Shown here piece by piece: positions 556 to 47,260 of a stretch of DNA of 64,000 nucleotides. The notes beneath the pieces are model-generated. The model did not search any database. It was not told the origin of the DNA and saw nothing but the letters and a program-made list of their open reading frames with translations. Source of the DNA: an uncultured Candidatus Saccharibacteria bacterium (GTDB lineage: Bacteria; Patescibacteriota; Saccharimonadia; UBA4664; CAZJNH01); contig CAYZIN010000001.1 of the NCBI GenBank assembly GCA_964478595.1, positions 4,294 to 68,293 of the forward strand, written 5' to 3'. The number at the start of each line of letters is the position of its first letter. Within the stretch, counting starts at the first letter, position 1. Both the position numbers and the translations under genes were made by a program.

Positions 556-1212
556 TCAACTAGAGGCGCTGAAACTTAAGGTTTTAACCATTTGAACGAA
601 GTCATTATACGCGTCAGTCGACCGGTCACCACTCGGTTCTTGATGGTAGCGGGCAACGTAGGTCCGACCATTCGTATAGAAAATGTAAACCACTGTAATC
701 GTGCCGGCTGGAGCGGCTGCCGGACCGGGGTTTATTAAAGAAGACCGCATTTTCTTACCGGTAATACCGTGGACCATTACGTCCTGGCTAGTGATGGCCC
801 CAAACCCTTGGGCCTGGCTTAGCTGTTGGTCGGCAGTGTGGTCTCCAGACATAGAAAAAACCTGAATTTGACCAGTCTGGCCAGAATTGCAAACCGCCAA
901 GCCGGCTGCTGTTGGGGCAAGAAAAACTGTTTCGGGATTATCGGTGCATTTTTTGATTTTCCAGTTGGGATTGAAGCGAAGCGAGAACTGGCCAGCGGTG
1001 CTGCTATAGGGCGTCCAGCTGCGAGTCGGGTCGGCTGGAACAGTGGCAGTCTGAATTTCGGCCGGGGTAGTTGGAGTCGGCGCAAAAGCTAGCGGAAAGG
1101 TTTTGGCGTACCAATAAATCCCGCCACCGCCAATCAGTAGCCCAGCCAGCAGAGCCAGGGTTAATTTAAACAAGGGCGTTGGAAAATCTTTTGGCGGACG
1201 AAGTATTGCCAT
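556..1212 (-). CDS. membrane-anchored secreted hypothetical protein
   Basis: 218 aa; N-terminal TM anchor (LTLALLAGLLIGGGGIYWYA) followed by a Pro/Thr-rich linker; no recognisable catalytic motif. Confidence 0.45.
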   Translation of the reverse strand: MAILRPPKDFPTPLFKLTLALLAGLLIGGGGIYWYAKTFPLAFAPTPTTPAEIQTATVPADPTRSWTPYSSTAGQFSLRFNPNWKIKKCTDNPETVFLAPTAAGLAVCNSGQTGQIQVFSMSGDHTADQQLSQAQGFGAITSQDVMVHGITGKKMRSSLINPGPAAAPAGTITVVYIFYTNGRTYVARYHQEPSGDRSTDAYNDFVQMVKTLSFSASS

Positions 1213-1246
1213 ACTACTTATGATTATAAACCAGTTGACCTGACGA

Positions 1247-2467
1247 TCAAACCTTAATTACCTCGTTGTCTAAGTGCTCCAAAATTTGCTTTTGCAATTT
1301 AGGTTCGCCGAAGTAACGGGCGAAAATTTCATTCCACAACGACTCACGACAATGATAAATATATCGGTCAGCAAACTTTAGTTGATTGGCAAAACTCAAC
1401 GCTAGGTCCATTAAGTTAAAACTGACGAGCTGGCCGGATTTAACTTCGGCCACAAAGTCGAGCCCGCGCCAGAAATCTAGCTCAGGATCTATGTGGTAAA
1501 GTACGTCCTCAGCTTTACGCCAATGCAAATCCTCCGGCTGGAGATGCGGTTTAAAAATTTCCGGGTGTTTCTCGTGCGGCAATTTACCGAAGTAGCGCTG
1601 AATCACAGCAAATTCGATGTCAGCATGAGTATCGACTTTAAATTTGGGTGGTTTGGCCACCAGGGTATCGCCGATGATCTGACCGAAGTTAGACCGGTGC
1701 CTAACCAGCTTGAAAAAACTGGAGTACAGTCGAATTTCGTTGAAGTAGTGGGTGATGAGTGGCAAAATTTTTATCGTCACACCTGGAGTATGGACGTTGC
1801 CTACCGGCAGTACACAAACCGCACCCATTTCCTTGGAATGGGTAATGTTGTGTAGTTTTTTGGCAACATACGGAGCCGCGACTTTCTCCCATTGGTCGGA
1901 TTCAAAAATAACAATTTGGATGTCGCGAGCCTCAAAATCAGCGGGTTTAAGTTTTTTTGAATAGGCGTCGTTAAAACGATTTAACCAGCCCGGTGTTTCA
2001 CAAAACCTCAGCGCGCAAAACAGCTTGGCAATTTCTTGATCTTTAATTAACTTGGCTACCGATTGATATCCCAGTAGTTTCATTATCCCCTTTGGCGGCA
2101 TGTCGACCAGCAGCTGCTTGGCTCGGGCGGGCTTTAAAAACCAACCGGATTTTGGCATTGGTTCAGCCTCAACCGCCGCCACGATTTTCGGTGTCAGCGC
2201 CGCCAGATCGGTCGGGTCGCTACCTCCGATTATTCGGCATAGCCGCTCGTCATCTTGTTTGACTCGAGCGACCAAAGCGGCATATACCGACTCGTGAGAA
2301 CTATCTTGATTGAGACCTAAGACTAAAAGCGATCGGTGAGTGCTTTGGCGAATATCGGCAGCCAGTTTAGCATCAATGCCCTGATTGCCGGTTTTAGCCT
2401 CAAGTTGCTTTAAGGTGTGCTCGAATAACGGTTCCTTGGCGGCCAAAATCTCGCCAAGCAAACTCAC
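1247..2467 (-). CDS. conserved hypothetical protein (406 aa), co-operonic with PfkB kinase and class I aldolase
   Basis: Long ORF, 4-nt overlap with the downstream kinase gene (ATGA-type coupling); no motif I can name. Confidence 0.5.
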   Translation of the reverse strand: MSLLGEILAAKEPLFEHTLKQLEAKTGNQGIDAKLAADIRQSTHRSLLVLGLNQDSSHESVYAALVARVKQDDERLCRIIGGSDPTDLAALTPKIVAAVEAEPMPKSGWFLKPARAKQLLVDMPPKGIMKLLGYQSVAKLIKDQEIAKLFCALRFCETPGWLNRFNDAYSKKLKPADFEARDIQIVIFESDQWEKVAAPYVAKKLHNITHSKEMGAVCVLPVGNVHTPGVTIKILPLITHYFNEIRLYSSFFKLVRHRSNFGQIIGDTLVAKPPKFKVDTHADIEFAVIQRYFGKLPHEKHPEIFKPHLQPEDLHWRKAEDVLYHIDPELDFWRGLDFVAEVKSGQLVSFNLMDLALSFANQLKFADRYIYHCRESLWNEIFARYFGEPKLQKQILEHLDNEVIKV

Positions 2468-3432
2468 AGCGAGCTGACATTGACTTTAATTCTTTTGAGC
2501 CTGGGGTGGTGCAAAATGCCAGCCTTGGCCCCGATCCGAGTCACGACTGAAGTGGCGTTGGCGCTGCCAAAGGTCAAAGCTTCTTCGATCGAGTGCCCCT
2601 GAGCAATTTTAGATGTAAAGCCCGACGCAAAAGCATCTCCGGCCCCCGTCCGGTCAACTACGCGCACTTTTTGATACTGCCCAGCCTCGTAAAAGTGCTG
2701 GTTGTCGCTAACGAAACTACCACCGGGACCATCGGTTAAAACCAAATAGGGGCAGACGCCGTGAGCTTGCGTGAAAATTTCGCGAACCGTTTTGCCGCCA
2801 AACAAACTGGAAAGCTCTTGCTTGTTACCAAACAAAATCGTCACTAGCGGCAACAGACGCTTGAGTTTGCGCGTTTGAACCAGTTCATCGTGACCAGGGT
2901 TGAGCCCCACTTGGATATTATGCTGATTAGCGTGGGTCAGTAATCGGCCGAGCAGATTTAAGTTACCGCCAAGGGAGGAAACATAAAACCACTCGGACCT
3001 TAAGCTGCGAATGGCTAAATCTTTGTGGTCAATTTGAGAAGAGGCTCCTCGATAAGCTAAAACAGTTCGCTCTCCATTGGGAGCCAAAAGCAGCACCGAA
3101 TAGGCCGAAGAATTTTTAACATCAACTGCGATATGAGTAGCTGATATTCCCTCTTTTCGCAAAACTCGCAAAATGTCTGCCCCGGCTGGGTCGCGACCAA
3201 TTTTGCCGGCAAACCCAGTCTTAAAACCCTGGCGAACAAAAGTAACTGCAGCGTTCATGGCCCCGCCACCAGTATCGAAATGTACATCGTCCAATTCTAA
3301 TTTCGCACCCAGCGGAAACTGTTCGACGTAATCTTTGCTGCGAACATCGCGCTTGGCGGCTAAAACTTTACCCGATAAAAAAACATCTTGGCTGGCCGCG
3401 CCAATGCAAATCACACTGGGCTGATTGTCCAT
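2464..3432 (-). CDS. PfkB-family carbohydrate/sugar-phosphate kinase (ribokinase-like)
   Basis: 322 aa; C-terminal PfkB signature DRTGAGDAFASGF; ribokinase-fold layout. Confidence 0.8.
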   Translation of the reverse strand: MDNQPSVICIGAASQDVFLSGKVLAAKRDVRSKDYVEQFPLGAKLELDDVHFDTGGGAMNAAVTFVRQGFKTGFAGKIGRDPAGADILRVLRKEGISATHIAVDVKNSSAYSVLLLAPNGERTVLAYRGASSQIDHKDLAIRSLRSEWFYVSSLGGNLNLLGRLLTHANQHNIQVGLNPGHDELVQTRKLKRLLPLVTILFGNKQELSSLFGGKTVREIFTQAHGVCPYLVLTDGPGGSFVSDNQHFYEAGQYQKVRVVDRTGAGDAFASGFTSKIAQGHSIEEALTFGSANATSVVTRIGAKAGILHHPRLKRIKVNVSSL

Positions 3433-3455
3433 GCCCTAATCATACCAGTTATGCT

Positions 3456-4268
3456 TTATTCAAGCATCATATGGGAAATAAGCTTAAACCGTTTTGGCAG
3501 TTCATCCCTCAGAAATTCTTCTTGAGCTTCGCCCGTTAATTTGGCGGCTTCTTGCCAAACTGCGCGACCAGCCAAAAAACCATCTACGCCCGAAGCTGCA
3601 GCATCTCGCAGCTGATCGGCAAACTGATCAAAGCTTACGCCGGCGGTCAGTAAGATCCAGGGCGTATCTCCAACCGTTTCAGTGATTACCTTGCAGGATT
3701 CCAGGTTGCCGGGATACTCCAGTTTCCAAACATCTGGCTTGACGCCGGCTTTTTGAAATGCCTGAACTGATCTTTCAACCAAACTTGGTGCCACAGCGTT
3801 CTCCGGGTAGACACGAATTTCTAGAAACAATGGCAAGCCCACCGATCGACAATCCTCTACTACCTTCAGTGCGGTCTCTAGCTGTTGGTTTGCACTCGGC
3901 ACATCCGGATTGAAGTAAAGCAAAATTTTGGCACCGTGCGCGCCTAGTTGTTTGATTTCGGTGGCTTTGCGTTCAATTTTGGTAATACGATCGCCGCCAT
4001 CTTCGACATAACCGCTGGCTTCAAGCGGTAACAAAAACGGCACGGAGCGATTCTCATAGGCTGGCAGTCCGGTTTCGATATCAACCAAAATGCCGCTAAA
4101 CAAACCGTCTAGGCTGCTAATAATTTTTTTCTTCAGCAAGGTTGCCTGTTCGGCCGTCACGCTGTCGGGATTGTTCGGGTTAATAAACTTCTTAAAACTG
4201 CCACGGTGATCAAACGCTAACATTAAAAACTTGTCGTCTTTGGTAAATTGTTTGAGATCTTCAGTCAT
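3456..4268 (-). CDS. class I aldolase of the LacD / tagatose-bisphosphate / YihT-like (DUF2090) family
   Basis: 270 aa; N-terminal FLMLAFDHRGSF motif characteristic of the LacD-type aldolase family; sits between transketolase and the PfkB kinase. Confidence 0.6.
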   Translation of the reverse strand: MTEDLKQFTKDDKFLMLAFDHRGSFKKFINPNNPDSVTAEQATLLKKKIISSLDGLFSGILVDIETGLPAYENRSVPFLLPLEASGYVEDGGDRITKIERKATEIKQLGAHGAKILLYFNPDVPSANQQLETALKVVEDCRSVGLPLFLEIRVYPENAVAPSLVERSVQAFQKAGVKPDVWKLEYPGNLESCKVITETVGDTPWILLTAGVSFDQFADQLRDAAASGVDGFLAGRAVWQEAAKLTGEAQEEFLRDELPKRFKLISHMMLE

Positions 4269-5245
4269 GGCTTCCTTTTGATTAATTCTTTGGCCGCGGC
4301 AGCTATGTCTTGGCCAGTTAAATGAAAATGTTTGAGCAGTTCATTGGGTCCGCCGCTTTCGCCGAACCGATCTTTCATACCGATCCGCTCGAGCGGGACC
4401 GGATGATTCTCGCCGAGCAATTCAGCAATTGCACCACCTAGTCCTCCGGCCACTTGCCCTTCTTCGGCGGTCAAAACGGCGCCGGTTTTTTTGGCACTCT
4501 TTAAAATCGTGACGGTGTCGAGCGGTTTGATGACCGGGCAGTTGATAACTTCCGCTTCGACTCCTTGGTGACCAAGCTCCTCGGCTGCGACCATAGCATG
4601 ATAAACCATGGTGCCACAAGCCACGATAGTAACGTCACTGCCTTCAGAGAAAACTTGGGCCTTAGCCAGGCTAAAGGGCGTGTCGAGGGTGGTCACAATC
4701 GGGGTTTTTTCACGGCCAAGTCGAATGTAGGCTGGGCCGGTGTTGGAGGCAATAGCGCGGGTAGCTTTAGCCGCCTCGAGGCTGTCGCACGGTGCTATCA
4801 CCATCATGTTGGGCAACGCCCGCATTAAGGCAATGTCTTCAAGCATTTGATGTGTGGCACCGTCCGGGCCGACCGATACTCCAGCGTGCGAACCGGCAAT
4901 TTTAACGTTGGCGTCGTTTAAACAAATAGTAGTGCGGATTTGTTCCCAATTACGGCCGGGAGAAAATGCGGCGTAGGAAGAGACGAACGGAATTTTGCCG
5001 ACCAGCGACATTCCAGCCGCAGTCGTTACTAGATTTTGTTCAGCCACTCCAACTTCCACAAAACGCTCGGGAAAGGCTTTGGCAAAATCTTCCATGCGGG
5101 TCGACTCCGTTAAATCGGCACAGAGCGCTACAATTCGCGGGTCAAGTTGGCCGGCTTCAAGCAGTCCCTTGCCGAAACCAGCGCGAATCGGTTCTTGGTC
5201 GACGTCCTTACCAAACAGGTGAGGGTTTAGTTTCAACTCACTCAT
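4265..5245 (-). CDS. tktB: transketolase, C-terminal (pyrimidine-binding/C-terminal domain) subunit
   Basis: Good homology-style match to transketolase central and C-terminal domains (GVAEQNLVTTAAGMSL..., SHAGVSVGPDGATHQ). Start moved to ATG at 5245 (MSELKLNPHLFG...), overlapping the upstream subunit's stop by 8 nt. The track ORF start at 5383 is an upstream extension. Confidence 0.85.
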   Translation of the reverse strand: MSELKLNPHLFGKDVDQEPIRAGFGKGLLEAGQLDPRIVALCADLTESTRMEDFAKAFPERFVEVGVAEQNLVTTAAGMSLVGKIPFVSSYAAFSPGRNWEQIRTTICLNDANVKIAGSHAGVSVGPDGATHQMLEDIALMRALPNMMVIAPCDSLEAAKATRAIASNTGPAYIRLGREKTPIVTTLDTPFSLAKAQVFSEGSDVTIVACGTMVYHAMVAAEELGHQGVEAEVINCPVIKPLDTVTILKSAKKTGAVLTAEEGQVAGGLGGAIAELLGENHPVPLERIGMKDRFGESGGPNELLKHFHLTGQDIAAAAKELIKRKP

Positions 5246-39692: not shown

Positions 39693-40469
39693 TTAAGCGG
39701 CAAGCCGTCGGGATTTCTCCAACGCGATGTCGCTGACCTTATGGCCGAACATCGTCGTCATGTGCCCAGTTGCTCCGGCGCGGACGAACACAACCTCGGG
39801 CGGAAGTCCAGGCGGTCGGAAGAGATGACCCAGGAAGTACTTGATCGATCTCTCCAGGGAGATGCACGACCGTCTTGGTCGCGCGACCCGTTCGCCGATA
39901 CCGGTGGTCTGCCGTAGATCGACCAACTCTGGCCAGCTGGTGGCAACGTCCAGACGGAGCTGACGGATGTCGTCGCCGACGAAGGCGATGTCGTGCAGTC
40001 CGGGGGCGAATTCGGCCAGCAATTGCTCGACCCTTTCCAGGCTGAGCTGCCAGACGAATGAGACCATCTTGGATGCGTCGCGCCGCAGGACGAAGGCCAT
40101 CGTCGCCGCCAGCCAGTTGCGAAGCCAGCGGCCAACATCGGAGTCGGTTATATCAACCCCGTTGGTGGGCGAGTGCCATGTAACAACTCGCTTGACCTTA
40201 TCCGGCCGGCTCATCCCGTAACGGGCTGCGTAAGCCCCACCATAGGAGTGGCCGACGATGATGGCGGGCGCGTTAGCTTTCTCGAGCTTCGCGTCGATCT
40301 CGGCTTCGATCTCCGGGTAGGTGTCCTTCATCGAGCGCAAGGCCAGGTGAGGGATGTTGACGTAGTCGGAGTGGGCCAACCAACACTGCAAGGCGTAAGC
40401 CGCCCGGCCGATACCTTTGCCGGGGACTATGCTACCCCCGATGTCTATGACTGGGTTTTGCGGGTCCAT
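39693..40469 (-). CDS. alpha/beta hydrolase (esterase/lipase-like), GC-rich, likely horizontally acquired
   Basis: 258 aa; VGHSYGGAYAARYG nucleophile elbow; about 62% GC against about 49% in flanking housekeeping genes. Confidence 0.65.
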   Translation of the reverse strand: MDPQNPVIDIGGSIVPGKGIGRAAYALQCWLAHSDYVNIPHLALRSMKDTYPEIEAEIDAKLEKANAPAIIVGHSYGGAYAARYGMSRPDKVKRVVTWHSPTNGVDITDSDVGRWLRNWLAATMAFVLRRDASKMVSFVWQLSLERVEQLLAEFAPGLHDIAFVGDDIRQLRLDVATSWPELVDLRQTTGIGERVARPRRSCISLERSIKYFLGHLFRPPGLPPEVVFVRAGATGHMTTMFGHKVSDIALEKSRRLAA

Positions 40470-40591: not shown

Positions 40592-41281
40592 CTACTTGTA
40601 GTTCTTTAGGGCATCGGCGGCGGCGGCGAGTTGAGCGACCTGTTTGCTCGAGCCTTTGCCTTTACCCAATAGCCGACCGGTCAAATAGACGCCAACTTCG
40701 AACGTTTTGTCGTGATCGGGACCAGATTCTTTGATGACCCTATAGCTTGGAGTCACGCCTTCTTTGTCCTGCGCCATTTCCTGAAACTTACTTTTCGGAT
40801 CCAGGTAGCTCCCTTCTTCCAGAATTTCCGGAAGTTTGGCGATTATATGGTCGTGGATAAATTTCGAGGCAGCGTCGTAACCTTGATCCAAATAAATCGC
40901 TCCGATAATCGCCTCAATGCAATTTGCCGAAATCAGCGCGCGGCTGCGGTCGTTGCCCTTTGATTCACCTCGGGATAGCTTCAAATAATCACTGACTCCC
41001 AATTTAGCCGCTACGTCACTTAAAGATTCGGTTTTAACCAAGGCGCTGCGATAGTTGGTGAGTTCGCCCTCGGGATTCGCAAAGTGTTTATATAAATAAT
41101 CGGTAACGACCAGCTCCAAAACGGCGTCGCCTAAAAATTCCAGCCGTTCGTTGTGCTCGAGTCCCGATTTGGGATGCTCGTTAAGGTAGGAGCGGTGAAT
41201 AAAGGCGCGCTCTAGCAGCTCGATTTCCTTAAATTTGAAACCCGACTTTTTTTGAAAATCAGCAGCCGTTGGTTTATCCAT
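40592..41281 (-). CDS. rnc: ribonuclease III
   Basis: 229 aa; ERLEFLGDAVLELVV RNase III signature and C-terminal dsRBD. Confidence 0.9.
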   Translation of the reverse strand: MDKPTAADFQKKSGFKFKEIELLERAFIHRSYLNEHPKSGLEHNERLEFLGDAVLELVVTDYLYKHFANPEGELTNYRSALVKTESLSDVAAKLGVSDYLKLSRGESKGNDRSRALISANCIEAIIGAIYLDQGYDAASKFIHDHIIAKLPEILEEGSYLDPKSKFQEMAQDKEGVTPSYRVIKESGPDHDKTFEVGVYLTGRLLGKGKGSSKQVAQLAAAADALKNYK

Positions 41282-41798
41282 TTGTGGCTCCGGTTCTGGT
41301 CGCTGCTTTCTTTTCTTGCCGTTTGGCCAATTTTTCCAAGCCCATCCGAAATAGCCGCTCGGTGTCCTTATATTCGATTAACTTCAATGCCTCTTCAGCG
41401 CTAAACCATTTGGCGTCGATAATCCATTCATCCACTTCTGGGAAAACTTTGTCGCTGCGGCCAACGGCCTCCATGAGGAAAACGTAGGTCGTCATCAATA
41501 TTAACTTGCCGTCGCGGCGATAAAAAAAGTGGATTTTATCTAACTTGTCGCGAATTTTTACCCTGCGCAGCCCGGTTTCTTCCCCGACTTCGCGGATAGC
41601 GGTTTGCTGCAAACTTTCGCCTTCCTCAACGTGGCCCTTAGGAATCGTCCAGCGTTTCAGGTGATCTTGGATCATCAAAATCTGCAACTGTCCACGACGA
41701 TAGCGATACACCATTCCGCCGGCGGTATATTCCTTGACGGCTTTAGCCCCCGCTTTAGGCTTTTTCTTGGTCTTTGGTTTTATCTGTTTCTGGTTCAT
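41274..41798 (-). CDS. Nudix hydrolase
   Basis: Nudix box GHVEEGESLQQTAIREVGEETGL; start placed at ATG 41798 (MNQKQIKPK...), overlapping the nusB 3' end by 44 nt in a different frame. The longer track ORF start would overlap nusB by 125 nt. Confidence 0.75.
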   Translation of the reverse strand: MNQKQIKPKTKKKPKAGAKAVKEYTAGGMVYRYRRGQLQILMIQDHLKRWTIPKGHVEEGESLQQTAIREVGEETGLRRVKIRDKLDKIHFFYRRDGKLILMTTYVFLMEAVGRSDKVFPEVDEWIIDAKWFSAEEALKLIEYKDTERLFRMGLEKLAKRQEKKAATRTGATNG

Positions 41799-42222
41799 AA
41801 AAATCACTGTTGCGATAAATCGTACCCAATACTCCGTTAACAAACTTAGAAGAGTTTTCGCCGCCAAATGCCTTGGCAAGCTCGACTGCCTCGTTAATTG
41901 CTACTTTGGGTGGAACATCCTTTTTAATCATTAACTCGTAAATCCCAATGCGCAGAATAATTTTGTCGACTTTGGCAATCTGTTCAATCGGCCATTCTGG
42001 CGCAACCGGTGTAATCATATCGTCGATTTTTTTCTGGTTTTTCGTTACACCGTCGACTAGATCGTTTACAAAATCCTTGTCGTCGATTGAGTCGGAAAAC
42101 TCGCCAATGTTGCGCTTTAAAACGTCCGGCAAATTAACATCAAGTCCGGCCGACTCCTTAAAGTCTTCCTCGTAAAGAGTCTGCATCGCCACGATCCGCC
42201 CAAGGTGCCTATTGCTAGCCAC
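41755..42222 (-). CDS. nusB: transcription antitermination factor NusB
   Basis: 155 aa; GTG start; RIVAMQTLYEEDF... NusB fold signature. Confidence 0.8.
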   Translation of the reverse strand: MASNRHLGRIVAMQTLYEEDFKESAGLDVNLPDVLKRNIGEFSDSIDDKDFVNDLVDGVTKNQKKIDDMITPVAPEWPIEQIAKVDKIILRIGIYELMIKKDVPPKVAINEAVELAKAFGGENSSKFVNGVLGTIYRNSDFYEPETDKTKDQEKA

Positions 42223-42491: not shown

Positions 42492-45371
42492 CTACTTGGT
42501 GACGAAGTTGATCAGTTTGCGGGGAACCACTACAGTGCGGACGATTTCTTGGCCTTCCAGTTGTCGGCTGATTTCTTTTTTAGCCAGCTCGGTGGTCTCA
42601 GCTTCGGTCGAGTCGAGAGTAATAGTAATCGTGGCCCGGAGTTTGCCATTAACTTGGATTGGGATTTCAACCAGGTCCTCTTTAATGAGTTTTTCATGGT
42701 ATTTCGGCCAGCCCTGGAGGTGAATCGATTCCTTTTCGCCCAAAGCCTTCCACAACTCTTCGGTTACGAATGGGGCAAACGGCGCTAGAAGTTTGAGCAG
42801 GGCGTTGATGGCCTCTCTCCAGGATTCGCCGCCAAGCGGAAGATCGGGTTTGAGTTTATACATTCCATTGACGAATTCCATAAGGGCGGCGACGGCAGTA
42901 TTAAAAGCAAAACTGCTGATGTCACTGGTGACTTTTTTGATAGTTTTGTTGGTTAGCGACGCCAAAGCCGTTTCCAGTTCGGCATTGGGTTGGAATTCTG
43001 TTGATTCAGTGAATTCCTCGACTAATCGCCAAACGCGGCGAATAAAGCGGTCGGTGCCAGCCAGCCCATTTTCTTGCCAGTTGGTTTCTTCGTTGTAGGG
43101 CGCGATAAACATTTCAAATAATCGCAGCGCGTCGGCGCCGTAACCCTGGTCGATTACTGCTTCTGGAGTAATCACATTTCCGGAGGATTTACTCATTTTG
43201 CGCCCGTCAGAGGCCAAAATCATGCCCTGGTTACGCAGCGTTAAAAACGGTTCGTCGAAGTCGATAATATTGGCGTCCTTCATGACCTTAGTCCAAAACC
43301 GGGCATACAATAGATGTAGTACCGCGTGTTCGGCGCCGCCAATGTAGGTATCAACCGGCAGCCAGTAACGAACCTTTTCAATATCGAATGCCTTTTTGTC
43401 GTTGTGCGGATCAGCAAAGCGGAGGAAATACCAGCTCGAGCAGGCAAAACCATCCATAGTGTCGGTTTCGCGTTCGGCCGGGCCGCCGCATTTCGGGCAA
43501 GTGGTTTTAACGAACGATTCAACTCGAGCAAGTGGCGACTTGCCATCTCCGGCCGGTTCGTAGGATTTAATCTCCGGCAACATCACCGGCAATTGATCTT
43601 CCGGAACCGCAACGGCTCCATCTTTTTCACAATGAATAATCGGCATGGGGGCACCCCAATACCGCTGTCGGCTGATTAACCAATCCCTCAAACGATAATT
43701 GGTAGTCGCCTCGGCCCTACCTTCTTTATGAAGATCTTCGGTAATAGCGTGTTTAGCTTCGTCTCCGGCTAAATCGGCATACTTGCCCGAGTGAACTAGG
43801 GGGCCTTCGCCGGTGTAAACTTGGCCGTGAATAAATTTGTCGTAACCATAGCGGTGCAGCGGCTCGGTGATTTCGCGTTCTGCGGTTTCGCGGTTGACCC
43901 ACTCGACCTTAAAATTACCGTGTTCGTAATCGTCCAGCTTCTGAGCTTTCTGGATATTACTTTTCAATTTTAGGCGGACAAAGTTAACCGCTGCCTCGCA
44001 AGCCTGCTGCTTTGAGAACGCGTAGTATTTGTAGTGAACCGTCTCGGCACCAACCTCATCCACCTCCAGGTCGTGATAGCCAGTTTCCTCTTCTATTTCA
44101 CGCAAAGCCGTATCAACCGGCGATTCACTGCCTTCAATTGTGCCGCCGATAGTAAGCCGGCCTCCAAGTTTTGGTCCCCAGTTGATCGTTAAAATCTCAC
44201 CCTCATCATTTTCGACTAACGCCACGATCTTTCGTTTTTTCTTGAACTGGGTCATATCTTTGGCGTCATCGCGCACTAATACCGGATCAACGACGTGTTT
44301 AATCGGCAAGTCGAACTTTTTAGCAAAGTCGAAGTCGCGCTGGTCGTGAGCCGGAACGGCCATAATGGCGCCGGTGCCGTAACCCATCAGCACATAATCG
44401 GCTACCCAAATCGGAATTTCGTCATTATTTAGCGGATTTATGGCGTACGAGCCGGTGAAAACCCCAGTTTTTGGCTTGTCGGTATCCATCCGGTCGATTT
44501 CCGATTCGGTTTTAGCTTTTTCGACGTATTTTTTAACCTCGCGGACCTGTTTTTCGGTCGTCAATTTTTCGACGAGTGGATGTTCGGGTGCCAAAACAAT
44601 AAACGTCGCACCACCCAACGTGTCGACTCTGGTCGTAAAGGTTTCGATAATTTCATCGCGGCCCTTAACATCGAACTTCAACTTCACACCAAAGCTGCGG
44701 CCGATCCAGTTTTTTTGCTGAGCTTTAATGCCTTCCGGCCAGTCTAGTCCGTTGAGATCGTCGATCAACCGATCGGCATAGTCGGTGATTTTGAAGAACC
44801 ATTGCTTGAGTGTCTTTTTGGTGACTTCGTGGCCGCAGCGCCAACACTTGCCGTCAATAACTTGCTCGTTGGCCAGTACCGTTTTGTCGTTGGGGCACCA
44901 CCACTGCTCACTCTCTTTTTGATAAGCCAGGCCCCTCTCAAACAACAGCAAAAAGAACCACTGCGTCCATTTGTAATATTTCGGATCGGTAGAATCGACC
45001 TCGCGGCTCCAGTCGTAGGAAAAGCCCATCCCCTGCATCTGTTTTTTGTAGTTAGCCTTATTCTCATCGGTAGCCTGACGGGGTGAGATTTTTTGTTTGA
45101 TGGCATAATTTTCGGCCGGCAAACCAAAGCCGTCCCAACCCATTGGGTGCAAAACGTTATCGCCCATCATCCGCCTGAACCGAGGATAAACGTCACTGAT
45201 CGTGTAATTGCGGACGTGTCCTACGCTCAACCCGGCGCCAGAGGGATACGGAAAATAATCTAATATATAGGACTTAGGCTTACTCGAATCGTCGTCGGTA
45301 GAGTACAGATGAGCGTCAGCCCAGATTTTTTGCCACTTCGGCTCAATTTTGTGCGGTTCGTATTTATTCAT
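42492..45371 (-). CDS. leuS: leucine--tRNA ligase carrying an inserted Nudix hydrolase domain
   Basis: 959 aa; HVRNYTISDV (HIGH-region), editing-domain TTRVDT and HDQRD motifs, NYRLRDW...RQRYWG, KMSKS; plus a canonical Nudix box G-x5-E-x7-REIEEETGY at residues 410-432 within an approx. 135-aa insertion absent from E. coli LeuS. Confidence 0.9.
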   Translation of the reverse strand: MNKYEPHKIEPKWQKIWADAHLYSTDDDSSKPKSYILDYFPYPSGAGLSVGHVRNYTISDVYPRFRRMMGDNVLHPMGWDGFGLPAENYAIKQKISPRQATDENKANYKKQMQGMGFSYDWSREVDSTDPKYYKWTQWFFLLLFERGLAYQKESEQWWCPNDKTVLANEQVIDGKCWRCGHEVTKKTLKQWFFKITDYADRLIDDLNGLDWPEGIKAQQKNWIGRSFGVKLKFDVKGRDEIIETFTTRVDTLGGATFIVLAPEHPLVEKLTTEKQVREVKKYVEKAKTESEIDRMDTDKPKTGVFTGSYAINPLNNDEIPIWVADYVLMGYGTGAIMAVPAHDQRDFDFAKKFDLPIKHVVDPVLVRDDAKDMTQFKKKRKIVALVENDEGEILTINWGPKLGGRLTIGGTIEGSESPVDTALREIEEETGYHDLEVDEVGAETVHYKYYAFSKQQACEAAVNFVRLKLKSNIQKAQKLDDYEHGNFKVEWVNRETAEREITEPLHRYGYDKFIHGQVYTGEGPLVHSGKYADLAGDEAKHAITEDLHKEGRAEATTNYRLRDWLISRQRYWGAPMPIIHCEKDGAVAVPEDQLPVMLPEIKSYEPAGDGKSPLARVESFVKTTCPKCGGPAERETDTMDGFACSSWYFLRFADPHNDKKAFDIEKVRYWLPVDTYIGGAEHAVLHLLYARFWTKVMKDANIIDFDEPFLTLRNQGMILASDGRKMSKSSGNVITPEAVIDQGYGADALRLFEMFIAPYNEETNWQENGLAGTDRFIRRVWRLVEEFTESTEFQPNAELETALASLTNKTIKKVTSDISSFAFNTAVAALMEFVNGMYKLKPDLPLGGESWREAINALLKLLAPFAPFVTEELWKALGEKESIHLQGWPKYHEKLIKEDLVEIPIQVNGKLRATITITLDSTEAETTELAKKEISRQLEGQEIVRTVVVPRKLINFVTK

Positions 45372-45966
45372 CTTTGGGTAATATTACCGTTCCAGCCCCT
45401 TTCGGACTAATGAATTCCTTTACCCGGGTGGCGTCGAACTGCGTTTTTGGATTACGGGCATCCGGATCTACCACTAAAACCTTGTCGTCCCACCTGACGA
45501 CAATAATGGCGTGAATGATTTTATTGTCGGGCGTACCAAATCCGGGCTTCATGGTCGCGATTACAGGAAAACCAGCTTTAACAATCTCTTCGATCGGTTT
45601 ACCTTCGACGTGCTTCTTAAAGAAATCGATTTCCTTGTCGCTCTCAATGTAGCCGGCTTTGATCATGGCTGGAAAATCGGTCGGGGGGGGCCAGCCAAAC
45701 TGCCAGGAAATGATGGTCGCATCATATTTTTTGCGCAGAAACCTACTTAACGCAGGCCGGCTCCAGTCGACCATGGGATTGCCGGCATCTACGGACAATT
45801 GATTTCGATCGATTGAGCGCATAAATTCGTCCGGCTCCATCGACTCAGACAAGTACCCGTTGGCCTTGAGTAGCATAAACAGGGCGATCGGGGCGCAGCT
45901 GCGGATTGCCAGCTCCGTGCCCAAGCTTGATTCCAGTGATTGAAGAGTGACGCGATCGATTTCCAT
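45364..45966 (-). CDS. hypothetical protein (200 aa), possibly papain-fold/amidase-like
   Basis: ORF with 8-nt overlap to leuS; isolated Cys (IRSCAPIALF) and later His (NKIIHAIIVV) suggest but do not prove a Cys-His hydrolase. Confidence 0.4.
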   Translation of the reverse strand: MEIDRVTLQSLESSLGTELAIRSCAPIALFMLLKANGYLSESMEPDEFMRSIDRNQLSVDAGNPMVDWSRPALSRFLRKKYDATIISWQFGWPPPTDFPAMIKAGYIESDKEIDFFKKHVEGKPIEEIVKAGFPVIATMKPGFGTPDNKIIHAIIVVRWDDKVLVVDPDARNPKTQFDATRVKEFISPKGAGTVILPKDE

Positions 45967-45970
45967 CTGA

Positions 45971-47260
45971 TTATTTTAACCCGAACGCCTTCTTTTTCTT
46001 AGCCAGCCAAAAAGCAGACTGGCGGACCAGCTTATTTCGATCATCTCGATGAGCTAGCAAAAGCTTGGTCGCTTCTTCGGCAAAGACGCCATTTTGCGAG
46101 CCTTTGACCAAAATTTGATCACCTTTTTTGAGATTAGCCAAAACGAATTCCCCTGCGCGGTAAGGATCGTTAAAACTGCGAATTTTGTCTGGCTTAAGCC
46201 CGGCTTTTAAGGCTGCATCGACCAAAAATTGACGCGCGTTATCGCCAATGGTTACCAATAAATCGAGATCTTTGGTGGCTTGGCCGACGGCGTGATGTCC
46301 GGCCTCAGTTTGCTCGCCTAGCTCGTTCATTGAGCCGAGGATAGCGATTTTTCTGCCGGTATTTGGTAAGGCAAATAAAGCCTCGAGTGCTGCTATTGCC
46401 GCGTCGGGCGAAGAGTTGTAGCTATCGTCGATCACCAAAGTTTTGTGTCGACCGGGCAACGGGTTCATCCGGCCATTAACTGGCTCAAGCGTTTCAAGCG
46501 ATTTTTTAATGTTATCAGGATCGACCGCCAACAGATCGGCCACGGCCACTGCGGCGGTGGCAGAGTACAAGCTGTGCCTGGCGATTAACTTAGTTTGCAC
46601 TTTGATTCCATGGTTGTTGATCAGCAGCGACCCCTTATAGCCCTCATCGGTCAGTTTGAGATCGGTCCAGTGATAATTGCCGTGATCGACGCCGTAACTT
46701 TTGCCGTTTTTTAGTTCGGTCAATTTCGACTTGAGCCTTGAATCGTCCGCATTGACTAGTCCTTGGCGACTTTTGACCGCCACTTGCCACTTCTCGTCCA
46801 GAATTTCTTCGATCGATTTGAATTGCCCCTCGGCGGTGTGAACGTTTTTGACCGCAGTCACAACTCCAATATCCGGCTTTATAAAGCTCAGAAGCTGTTT
46901 GATCTCGCCTTTGCGTTCGGCACCCATTTCTAAAATCCAAGCATCATGCTTAACCGGCGACCAGATTTTGTGTTCGTTGCGAATGAAAATCAAGAGCCAA
47001 GCTAAGGGGTTAATCAAAAAGCGCGGTGAGGATTCCCCGAAAATTGCCAACGGCAAACCAACTAGTGTGTTATAGCTGCCGGCTTGGGCGTGGACGCTGT
47101 ATTCAGAAGATAAAACGTGCGCAATCGCGGCTTTAGTCGAAGTTTTGCCGACGCTGCCGGTAATCGCCACAATTTTCGGATTGTGCCGTTTGATTAAACG
47201 CTTAACCTGCCAGCTCAGGATTCGTTCAATTGCCCGGCGAAACTTTTCAACCATAACCAT
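45971..47260 (-). CDS. murF: UDP-N-acetylmuramoyl-tripeptide--D-alanyl-D-alanine ligase
   Basis: 429 aa; Mur-ligase P-loop ITGSVGKTSTK and C-terminal domain. Confidence 0.8.
   Translation of the reverse strand: MVMVEKFRRAIERILSWQVKRLIKRHNPKIVAITGSVGKTSTKAAIAHVLSSEYSVHAQAGSYNTLVGLPLAIFGESSPRFLINPLAWLLIFIRNEHKIWSPVKHDAWILEMGAERKGEIKQLLSFIKPDIGVVTAVKNVHTAEGQFKSIEEILDEKWQVAVKSRQGLVNADDSRLKSKLTELKNGKSYGVDHGNYHWTDLKLTDEGYKGSLLINNHGIKVQTKLIARHSLYSATAAVAVADLLAVDPDNIKKSLETLEPVNGRMNPLPGRHKTLVIDDSYNSSPDAAIAALEALFALPNTGRKIAILGSMNELGEQTEAGHHAVGQATKDLDLLVTIGDNARQFLVDAALKAGLKPDKIRSFNDPYRAGEFVLANLKKGDQILVKGSQNGVFAEEATKLLLAHRDDRNKLVRQSAFWLAKKKKAFGLK

Follow-up and report, generated by a model that had tools for sequence, protein, structure and literature searches.

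Few enzymes are as conserved as the aminoacyl-tRNA synthetases. AlaX, YbaK/ProX and ThrRS-ed are free-standing paralogues of editing domains. In leucyl-tRNA synthetase (LeuRS), the editing domain CP1 has the 3'-terminal adenosine of tRNA as a known ligand and is the target of benzoxaborole LeuRS inhibitors. Among Nudix enzymes, the described activity of AvrM14 is the decapping of host mRNA (PMC12425495), Np4N caps are removed by RppH, and dinucleoside polyphosphates (NpnN), first discovered as reaction products of aminoacyl-tRNA synthetases, are hydrolyzed by Nudix enzymes (PMC9283932). Here we describe a LeuRS that carries a Nudix domain inside CP1. Its gene, leuS, lies in a 64,000-nucleotide (nt) stretch (the window) of contig CAYZIN010000001.1, positions 4,294 to 68,293 of the forward strand, from an uncultured Candidatus Saccharibacteria bacterium (assembly GCA_964478595.1).

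Neither domain is new in itself, and other synthetases with added domains are known. A CP1-nested Nudix module that is found lineage-wide and in multiple copies, that also has stand-alone CP1+Nudix counterparts and that is exchanged like a cassette within an essential gene appears to be undescribed. To have a second catalytic domain inside the proofreading domain throughout a major uncultivated lineage would represent a new architecture for a synthetase. We are nearly certain of four claims taken jointly: the nested Nudix domain is complete, it is widespread and no artefact, it belongs to a distinct subfamily, and it behaves as a replaceable cassette.

A complete Nudix domain nested in CP1

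Residues 363-517 of the window's LeuRS make up a complete Nudix pyrophosphohydrolase domain, including the full catalytic box, in a surface loop of CP1 of an otherwise canonical enzyme. The gene and the features that define the nested domain are the following (aa, amino acids; ORF, open reading frame; AF2, AlphaFold2).

42492..45371, reverse strand: leuS, bacterial-type LeuRS of 959 aa; continuous ORF without stops, supported by TIGR00396, phmmer and AF2
44286..44714, reverse strand: N-terminal part of the CP1 editing domain, about aa 220-362; PF13603 match over aa 220-377, profile positions 1-156 of 185
44619-44636, reverse strand: T-rich motif TTRVDT, aa 246-251, within the N-terminal part of CP1
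44334-44348, reverse strand: HDQRD, aa 342-346, within the N-terminal part of CP1
43821..44285, reverse strand: nested Nudix cassette of type T4, aa 363-517, with refined boundaries
44076..44144, reverse strand: Nudix box GX5EX7REUXEEXGU, aa 410-432, GTIEGSESPVDTALREIEEETGY, assigned from sequence and conservation
43899..44012, reverse strand: family-specific K454 (44010-44012) and W491 (43899-43901), downstream of the box, assigned from conservation
43707..43820, reverse strand: C-terminal part of CP1, about aa 518-555, resuming past the cassette; query residues from 518 on correspond to Thermus thermophilus residues from 376 on

The initial annotation had assigned this reverse-strand ORF to LeuS, and the assignment holds: the whole protein passes the TIGR00396 leuS_bact equivalog cutoff (1050.4 bits versus 548.4), its body can be aligned end to end with T. 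thermophilus LeuRS 1H3N (phmmer, E = 3e-249), and NCBI contains an identical protein (P0082). In the alignment to the T. thermophilus enzyme, residues 1-362 correspond to 1-363 and residues 518-723 to 376-582, so that 155 residues stand in place of a 12-residue loop; the loop at the same site measures 7-39 aa in insert-less Saccharibacteria. The PF13603 match to CP1 (218 bits) is broken at profile position 156 of 185 in the window, whereas it reaches positions 183-184 of 185 uninterrupted in the insert-less relatives L073, L074 and L077. Since the T. thermophilus alignment resumes at residue 376 and the PF13603 match is interrupted at 156/185, the insert lies within CP1. A stand-alone CP1+Nudix protein, P0002, can be aligned to residues 225-555 of the window's LeuRS.

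The earlier placement of the Nudix domain after the editing domain was thus not borne out, but the insertion itself is of the size then proposed (about 155 aa), the TTRVDT and HDQRD motifs are both present, and the Nudix box lies exactly at the residues and nucleotides first claimed. T247, D250, T251 and D346 are invariant across sets of 81 and 77 sequences. The segment 43827..44291, in which the initial annotation had seen a Nudix domain, matches Pfam NUDIX (PF00293) when searched alone (E = 1.8e-11, 44.6 bits versus a cutoff of 21.1, profile positions 3-129 of 134), and the same family scores 40.0 bits against that cutoff within the whole protein. When a six-frame translation of the window was scanned with the family hidden Markov model (HMM), only the insert segment and a neighboring Nudix gene matched. 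All box residues are present (G410, E416, R424, E425, I426, E428, E429, G431 and Y432), and the GC content of the insert, 0.48-0.50, equals that of its flanks.

Structure prediction, which had been proposed as a check of fold integrity, gave a confident Nudix fold. The AF2 model of the full-length LeuRS has a mean predicted local distance difference test score (pLDDT) of 90.9 and a predicted template modeling (pTM) score of 0.81, with a pLDDT of 87-96 in the insert; the insert modeled alone reaches a pLDDT of 95.7 and a pTM of 0.89 and is predicted to adopt the alpha/beta/alpha Nudix fold. Its Foldseek neighbors, at template modeling (TM) scores of 0.65-0.80, include RppH and the Aquifex diadenosine tetraphosphate (Ap4A) hydrolase (TM 0.80). 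A profile built from 68 inserts (see below) has AvrM14-A/B as its top full-length match in the PDB (E = 3e-13), followed by Ap4A hydrolase, DIPPs, Dcp2 and RppH; the lupin Ap4A hydrolase matches over the N-terminal half only (E = 6e-11), and human NUDT2 matches with E = 8.5e-8. K454 aligns with the Lys of the AvrM14 'SKDTQR' segment. Hydrolases of Ap4A, of diadenosine hexaphosphate (Ap6A) and of diadenosine polyphosphates are found among the sequence and structure neighbors of the insert. None of the NCBIfam Nudix equivalogs RppH, MutT, NudB and YtkD was reached by the insert (NudB, 21 versus 103 bits; MutT, 19 versus 97.9), and the stand-alone relative P0006 gave 20.5 bits against the RppH cutoff of 116. 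The module belongs to a distinct Nudix subfamily, other members of which are found elsewhere in LeuRS, in tandem copies and as stand-alone CP1+Nudix and Nudix genes.

The 68 inserts have a median identity of only 21% to the window's insert, compared with about 57-59% among the pooled LeuS bodies (mean p-distance, 0.41-0.43). Nevertheless, G410, E428 and E429 of the box and the family-specific W491 are present in all 68 of these divergent inserts, and E425 (67/68), G431 (66/68), R424 (64/68) and the family-specific K454 (63/68) in nearly all. Position 416 is occupied by E in 54, D in 9 and Q in 5 of the 68. The pattern of box conservation is the same in 81 close homologues. A box that stays near-invariant at about 21% insert identity points to selection on catalysis, and canonical modules, including that of the window, are probably catalytically active. 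There is also a conserved variant subtype, 'GG.E.GQT...A-x-EI.EETG', in which the box Arg and Glu7 are lost; it is the sole module in one subclade (L026, L036, L047 and L065) and the partner module in most multi-module LeuRS.

Distribution, multi-module forms and cassette turnover

Scanning one genome per species yielded 80 related leuS loci, nearly all labeled Saccharibacteria, Saccharimonadales or Patescibacteria, of which 76 give usable LeuRS. In this survey of orthologues, which the initial annotation had suggested, an insert of 152-174 aa is present at exactly the window's site in 67 of these 76 enzymes, and the remaining 9 have the loop of 7-39 aa. Pfam NUDIX is matched by every insert (68/68, the window's included). 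A PF00293 match is also precomputed for 118 of the 120 nearest 90%-identity protein clusters (from NCBI, JGI, ENA and Logan), the source labels of which read just 'leucine--tRNA ligase' or 'leucyl-tRNA synthetase'. Both samples, the 76 loci and the 120 clusters, are enriched for insert carriers, since the query contained the insert. LeuRS-Nudix is a genuine and widespread feature of Saccharibacteria and, judging by record labels, of some other Patescibacteria too, and most Saccharibacteria LeuRS in public databases have it. The initial remark that no LeuS family with an embedded Nudix module was known stands for the literature, in that full-text searches returned no description of a LeuRS-Nudix fusion, but not for the databases, where the architecture is common. 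PMC12077802 was considered as a precedent and ruled out; Nudix occurs there just in the reference list. Loss of the insert is supported by several insert-less relatives (L017, L076, L077 and L079), which have insert-bearing nearest neighbors in 94-100% of bootstraps.

Other additions to LeuRS were seen in the same set. An alpha/beta-hydrolase of the Ser_hydrolase family (PF06821) lies at the N-terminal edge of CP1 in L068 (5995-9441) and L073 (5980-9024), and also in L001 (1179-2203); L073 has this domain in CP1 without any Nudix. L074, L077, L061, L065 and L063 carry 70-190 extra residues without an assigned domain at the same edge. In P0005, P0026 and P0018, an extra insert of about 100 aa follows the 'HC..C' zinc motif ('...EKTIETRALNPEE..YFGD.K.GDII...') and looks, by eye, like an ASCH/PUA-type domain. 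The contig closest to the window by insert similarity, L001 (ENA ERZ25039538 contig_36148), has its leuS (605-5117) spread over many frames in 4.5 kb, a breakage typical of uncorrected long-read assemblies; its LeuRS seems to contain one Ser_hydrolase domain together with two Nudix modules.

Searching with the insert alone in a word-indexed database found a single fragment, because the inserts are too divergent. An exhaustive HMMER search of 1.84 billion representatives gave 80 hits, comprising 34 flanked by LeuRS, 18 strong family members without a detectable LeuRS body and 28 generic Nudix proteins. Among the synthetase-embedded hits, LeuRS was the host in 34/34 and no other synthetase was found. 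In some enzymes two or three modules were seen, as a rule a canonical-box module together with one of the 'GQT...A-x-EI' variant. Tandem modules occur in the linker preceding CP1 (P0012, P0015, P0018 and P0021) or at the CP1 site (L070, 4958-8320; P0019; P0169), and P0030 has a module near ZN2. In L058 (5974-10356, 1461 aa), a whole degenerate CP1+Nudix unit is repeated and a third module is present.

Other CP1+Nudix genes stand alone, encoding 287-307 aa without any synthetase body; their products have lost the T-rich motif, have a canonical Nudix box and mostly keep the editing Asp. P0002 (307 aa; L088, 1013-1936) spans the exact CP1 boundaries, has a Nudix domain 68% identical to that of the window, and is encoded by a gene ending 142 nt upstream of a genuine leuS. 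P0004 (287 aa; L089, 6001-6864) lies between topA and an unrelated gene, both in the closed chromosome CP066684.1 and in independent contigs. Nudix-only stand-alone genes were found 4 nt upstream of valS (L082, 711-1175) and about 100 nt upstream of a gene similar to that for alanyl-tRNA synthetase (AlaRS) (L086, 5001-5477; PF01411 and PF07973); no synthetase was seen in the contexts L084 and L085. The L085 gene (1830-2375) translates only with UGA read as Gly (table 25), and the subfamily is therefore also stand-alone in a recoded, Gracilibacteria-type lineage.

The module behaves like an exchangeable cassette, in that cassette types are reshuffled among lineages while LeuRS bodies track their genomes. 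Insert distances show no correlation with body distances (Spearman rho = -0.05, reached by 827 of 999 permutations), whereas the CP1 flanks agree with the rest of the body (rho = 0.65). Distances of an independent neighboring gene give rho = 0.42 with the body and 0.06 with the insert. The inserts fall into about 16 discrete cassette types; single body clusters (p-distance <=0.30) hold up to six of them, and types are shared across three to six body clusters. Pairs whose bodies are about 80-87% identical drop to 17-35% precisely between residues of about 357 and 513. At the DNA level, the identity between L002 and L007 falls from 65-92% to 30-52% within codons of about 360-515, the box block excepted. 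P0090 shares 80% identity with the window in its insert but only 59% in its body. Modules in tandem within one LeuRS are of different types, each found singly elsewhere (P0169, T16-like and T4; L058, T4, T1 and T11-like), and stand-alone copies share these types as well (P0002, T4; P0004 and P0006, T5).

The timescale of exchange was taken from an independent set of 81 proteins. The observations by class of body identity are as follows.

Body identity >=85%: inserts co-inherited, median identity 87-91%, with one exception
Body identity 80-85%: different cassettes in 6/25 pairs
Body identity 70-80%: different cassettes in 437/592 pairs

Saturation was rejected as the cause of the discordance in view of the discrete types, the co-inheritance at >=85% body identity and the sharp breakpoints. 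A neighbor-joining tree first suggested that a single ancestral insert had been inherited vertically and lost repeatedly; this simple history was rejected on the uncorrelated insert and body distances, though loss does occur. Turnover probably proceeds by adding a new module beside the old one and then losing one of the two; the simplest model is such addition followed by loss, or gene conversion from stand-alone copies. An essential gene that is inherited vertically while its inner module is swapped represents an unusual evolutionary mode, which hints at conflict-driven selection. For phylogenomics of Saccharibacteria, residues 363-517 should be masked in leuS alignments.

Possible functions of the nested module

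At a rough probability of 35-40%, we favor the reading that the module serves as a pyrophosphohydrolase, coupled to CP1, for a polyphosphate linked to adenosine or to an RNA end. In this scheme LeuRS would still charge and proofread tRNALeu. The Nudix module would work jointly with CP1 on a substrate that is held at the synthetase and bears an adenosine or an RNA end, and would hydrolyze a pyrophosphate-linked group on it. The reaction would be similar to those of RppH, AvrM14 or ApnA hydrolases, on an RNA end or an adenylylated polyphosphate, and would not amount to general scavenging of soluble Ap4A. Our preference is based on the exclusive association of the synthetase-embedded hits with LeuRS, the existence of stand-alone CP1+Nudix genes and the repetition of a CP1+Nudix unit in L058; on the location of stand-alone Nudix members next to valS and an AlaRS-like gene; and on the relationship of the insert to cap- and polyphosphate-cleaving enzymes in genomes where a separate ApnA hydrolase candidate is already present. 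A second catalytic domain at this place could tie the quality control of translation to the metabolism of nucleotides or RNA ends, and a nested domain in CP1 could change the access of drugs or ligands.

Several observations weigh against a mechanism of this kind. The insert was lost in at least four or five lineages and is, by virtue of these losses, dispensable. Some modules lie outside CP1, in the linker preceding it or near ZN2, and the Ser_hydrolase insertions in CP1 of some relatives would fit a merely permissive site. Nudix-only stand-alone genes exist, and only two of their four informative contexts adjoin a synthetase. Catalysis is not universal, since the variant subtype lacks the box Arg and Glu7. 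Finally, PADLOC and PHROGs returned weak generic Nudix similarity only and no specific defense or phage family, and a link to known families of either sort was rejected on these matches.

We give only slight credence to the idea that CP1+Nudix is a cassette for surveillance or repair of the tRNA acceptor end, in which CP1 would dock A76 and the Nudix domain would remove a pyrophosphate-linked adduct that blocks charging, for example, the 3'-pyrophosphate that toxic small alarmone synthetases (toxSAS) put on tRNA CCA ends (PMC11559606; bioRxiv 10.1101/2021.04.30.441581). Were it true, cassette exchange, multi-module enzymes and stand-alone copies would be the record of an arms race against toxins of a host, a competitor or a phage.

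One alternative to CP1-coupled hydrolysis, along the lines of the local Ap4A or aminoacyl-adenylate clearance that the initial annotation had proposed, is that the tethered Nudix domain scavenges by-products, hydrolyzing free Ap4A and other dinucleoside polyphosphates, or aminoacyl-adenylate, from the synthetic site of LeuRS, with no role for CP1 or RNA. A second gene bears on this possibility.

41274..41879, reverse strand: free-standing Nudix gene of the ApnA hydrolase type, syntenic neighbor of leuS; 70 bits against Pfam NUDIX

This is the free Nudix gene that the initial annotation had noted downstream of leuS, and it was recovered 613 nt away. Its product matches the Aquifex Ap4A hydrolase 3I7U over the full length in the PDB (E = 2e-19), followed by Ndx1, the Caenorhabditis elegans Ap4A hydrolase and NUDT2, and nearly all loci, insert-bearing and insert-less alike, have an equivalent gene 0.7-5 kb downstream of leuS. 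It was rejected as donor or paralogue of the insert, the similarity being confined to the box (14/40 identities), and as a member of the insert family, with 40-50 bits on the insert HMM versus 111-169 for inserts. On these comparisons the neighbor is a better Ap4A hydrolase candidate than the insert. Because the genomes already keep such an ApnA hydrolase candidate beside leuS, whether the insert is present or not, the case for the insert as a plain Ap4A scavenger is weakened. We regard scavenging as unlikely. It would agree with the conserved catalytic box, with the diadenosine polyphosphatases among the neighbors of the insert and with the discovery of NpnN as synthetase products that Nudix enzymes hydrolyze (PMC9283932). 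On the other hand, the insert reaches no NCBIfam Nudix equivalog cutoff, and the roughly 16 swapped types, the two or three modules per enzyme and the stand-alone proteins that retain CP1 would be left unexplained. Aminoacyl-adenylates, to our knowledge, are no recognized class of Nudix substrates, which also counts against this explanation.

It is likewise unlikely, in our estimate, that the module is a hitch-hiker, i.e., that independent Nudix domains (and other hydrolases) reside in a permissive CP1 loop and are co-expressed in tiny genomes with no mechanistic link to LeuRS. Several insertion sites are in use, unrelated Ser_hydrolase and unassigned 70-190-aa modules occupy the N-terminal edge of CP1, the insert was lost repeatedly, and the many cassette types possibly differ in specificity, all of which would suit such a passenger. 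Yet among synthetase-embedded hits the module is confined to LeuRS (34/34), and the stand-alone proteins keep the CP1 scaffold despite their lost editing motif, and it is difficult to see why they should if CP1 plays no part. The stand-alone Nudix genes directly upstream of valS and of the AlaRS-like gene also speak against it.

More doubtful still is a noncatalytic role, in which the Nudix fold would serve in structure, tRNA binding or nucleotide sensing, possibly compensating for the leucine-specific domain that this LeuRS lacks. The absence of that domain and the retention of the variant subtype without the box Arg and Glu7 are in line with this proposal, but the canonical type, to which the window's module belongs, keeps its box residues invariant or nearly so at about 21% identity. 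Compensation for the missing domain was rejected, as insert-less relatives are also without it. Finally, a chimeric assembly or a mis-joined split LeuRS and Nudix gene, which might be suspected from the frameshifts in the related contig L001 and from the many sources that are metagenome-assembled genomes or co-assemblies, is ruled out by the continuous ORF, the uniform composition across the insert, the same junctions in >100 independent assemblies (including contigs of 0.4-1.4 Mb), the agreement of both cassette flanks with each other, CP1 flanks being compared with the rest of the body, and the confident full-length AF2 model.

Synthetase body, neighboring genes and comparison with known systems

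Two further features of the synthetase body concern its class I signatures.

45216..45227, reverse strand: HIGH signature, reading SVGH, aa 49-52; Ser49 codon AGC
43185..43199, reverse strand: KMSKS loop, aa 725-729, identified by sequence; not preceded by a leucine-specific domain as it is in T. thermophilus

The initial annotation had stated that all class I motifs are kept. This is correct for KMSKS, which is intact, but the HIGH signature departs from it. Ser49 was found in the window's LeuRS only, with His at this position in 80/80 close and 74/74 divergent relatives; the AGC codon is two substitutions away from a His codon. As for the leucine-specific domain (about residues 583-636 in T. 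thermophilus), query residues 723 and 725 correspond to T. thermophilus residues 582 and 637, and the region comprises only 14-15 aa in all 77 sequences, so that the domain is absent in all 76 relatives, with or without an insert. Residues 723-725 (about 43190-43205, reverse strand) mark the place where the LeuRS of T. thermophilus and Escherichia coli carry it.

Around leuS, the free-standing Nudix gene adjoins nusB and rnc. With a TTG start, its ORF would overlap the end of nusB by about 125 nt, and the true start is probably further downstream. On the other side, the 8-nt overlap between the leuS start codon and an ORF of 200 aa without a Pfam match (45364-45966, reverse strand) suggests that the two are translationally coupled; a murF-like ligase (45971-47260) lies upstream of this ORF. 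An alpha/beta-hydrolase-like ORF at 39693-40469 (reverse strand) has a GC content of 0.60-0.62, compared with about 0.48 in its surroundings, and this GC-rich patch may be foreign DNA.

Compared with known systems, the window's LeuRS shares its body, KMSKS, T-rich motif, editing Asp and TIGR00396 membership with bacterial-type LeuRS such as those of T. thermophilus (1H3N/2BYT) and E. coli (4AQ7). It differs from them in having a 155-aa Nudix domain for a 12-residue CP1 loop, the SVGH signature and no leucine-specific domain. The insert in turn shares the Nudix fold and box with AvrM14 (8DP8/8DP9), E. coli RppH, Aquifex 3I7U, Ndx1, the DIPPs and the uncharacterized 2AZW, at an identity of only 13-23% and without reaching an NCBIfam equivalog cutoff. 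Enzymes of the AvrM14, RppH and Ap4A hydrolase types are free-standing, whereas the insert is nested in the editing domain of a synthetase, and its subfamily is marked, unlike those enzymes, by an 'hK..NR' motif and a conserved Trp.

Judging by its family name, NF040702, 'isoleucine--tRNA ligase, N-acetyltransferase domain-containing', likewise combines a class Ia editing synthetase with an extra catalytic domain. By the same comparison of names, both the synthetase and the added domain are different ones, and we know of no cassette turnover in that family. The stand-alone proteins P0002 and P0004 resemble AlaX, YbaK/ProX and ThrRS-ed in being editing-domain homologues split from a synthetase body. 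They are set apart from these AlaX-type proteins by the LeuRS CP1 origin of their fold, the loss of the T-rich hydrolytic motif and the Nudix domain nested within them.

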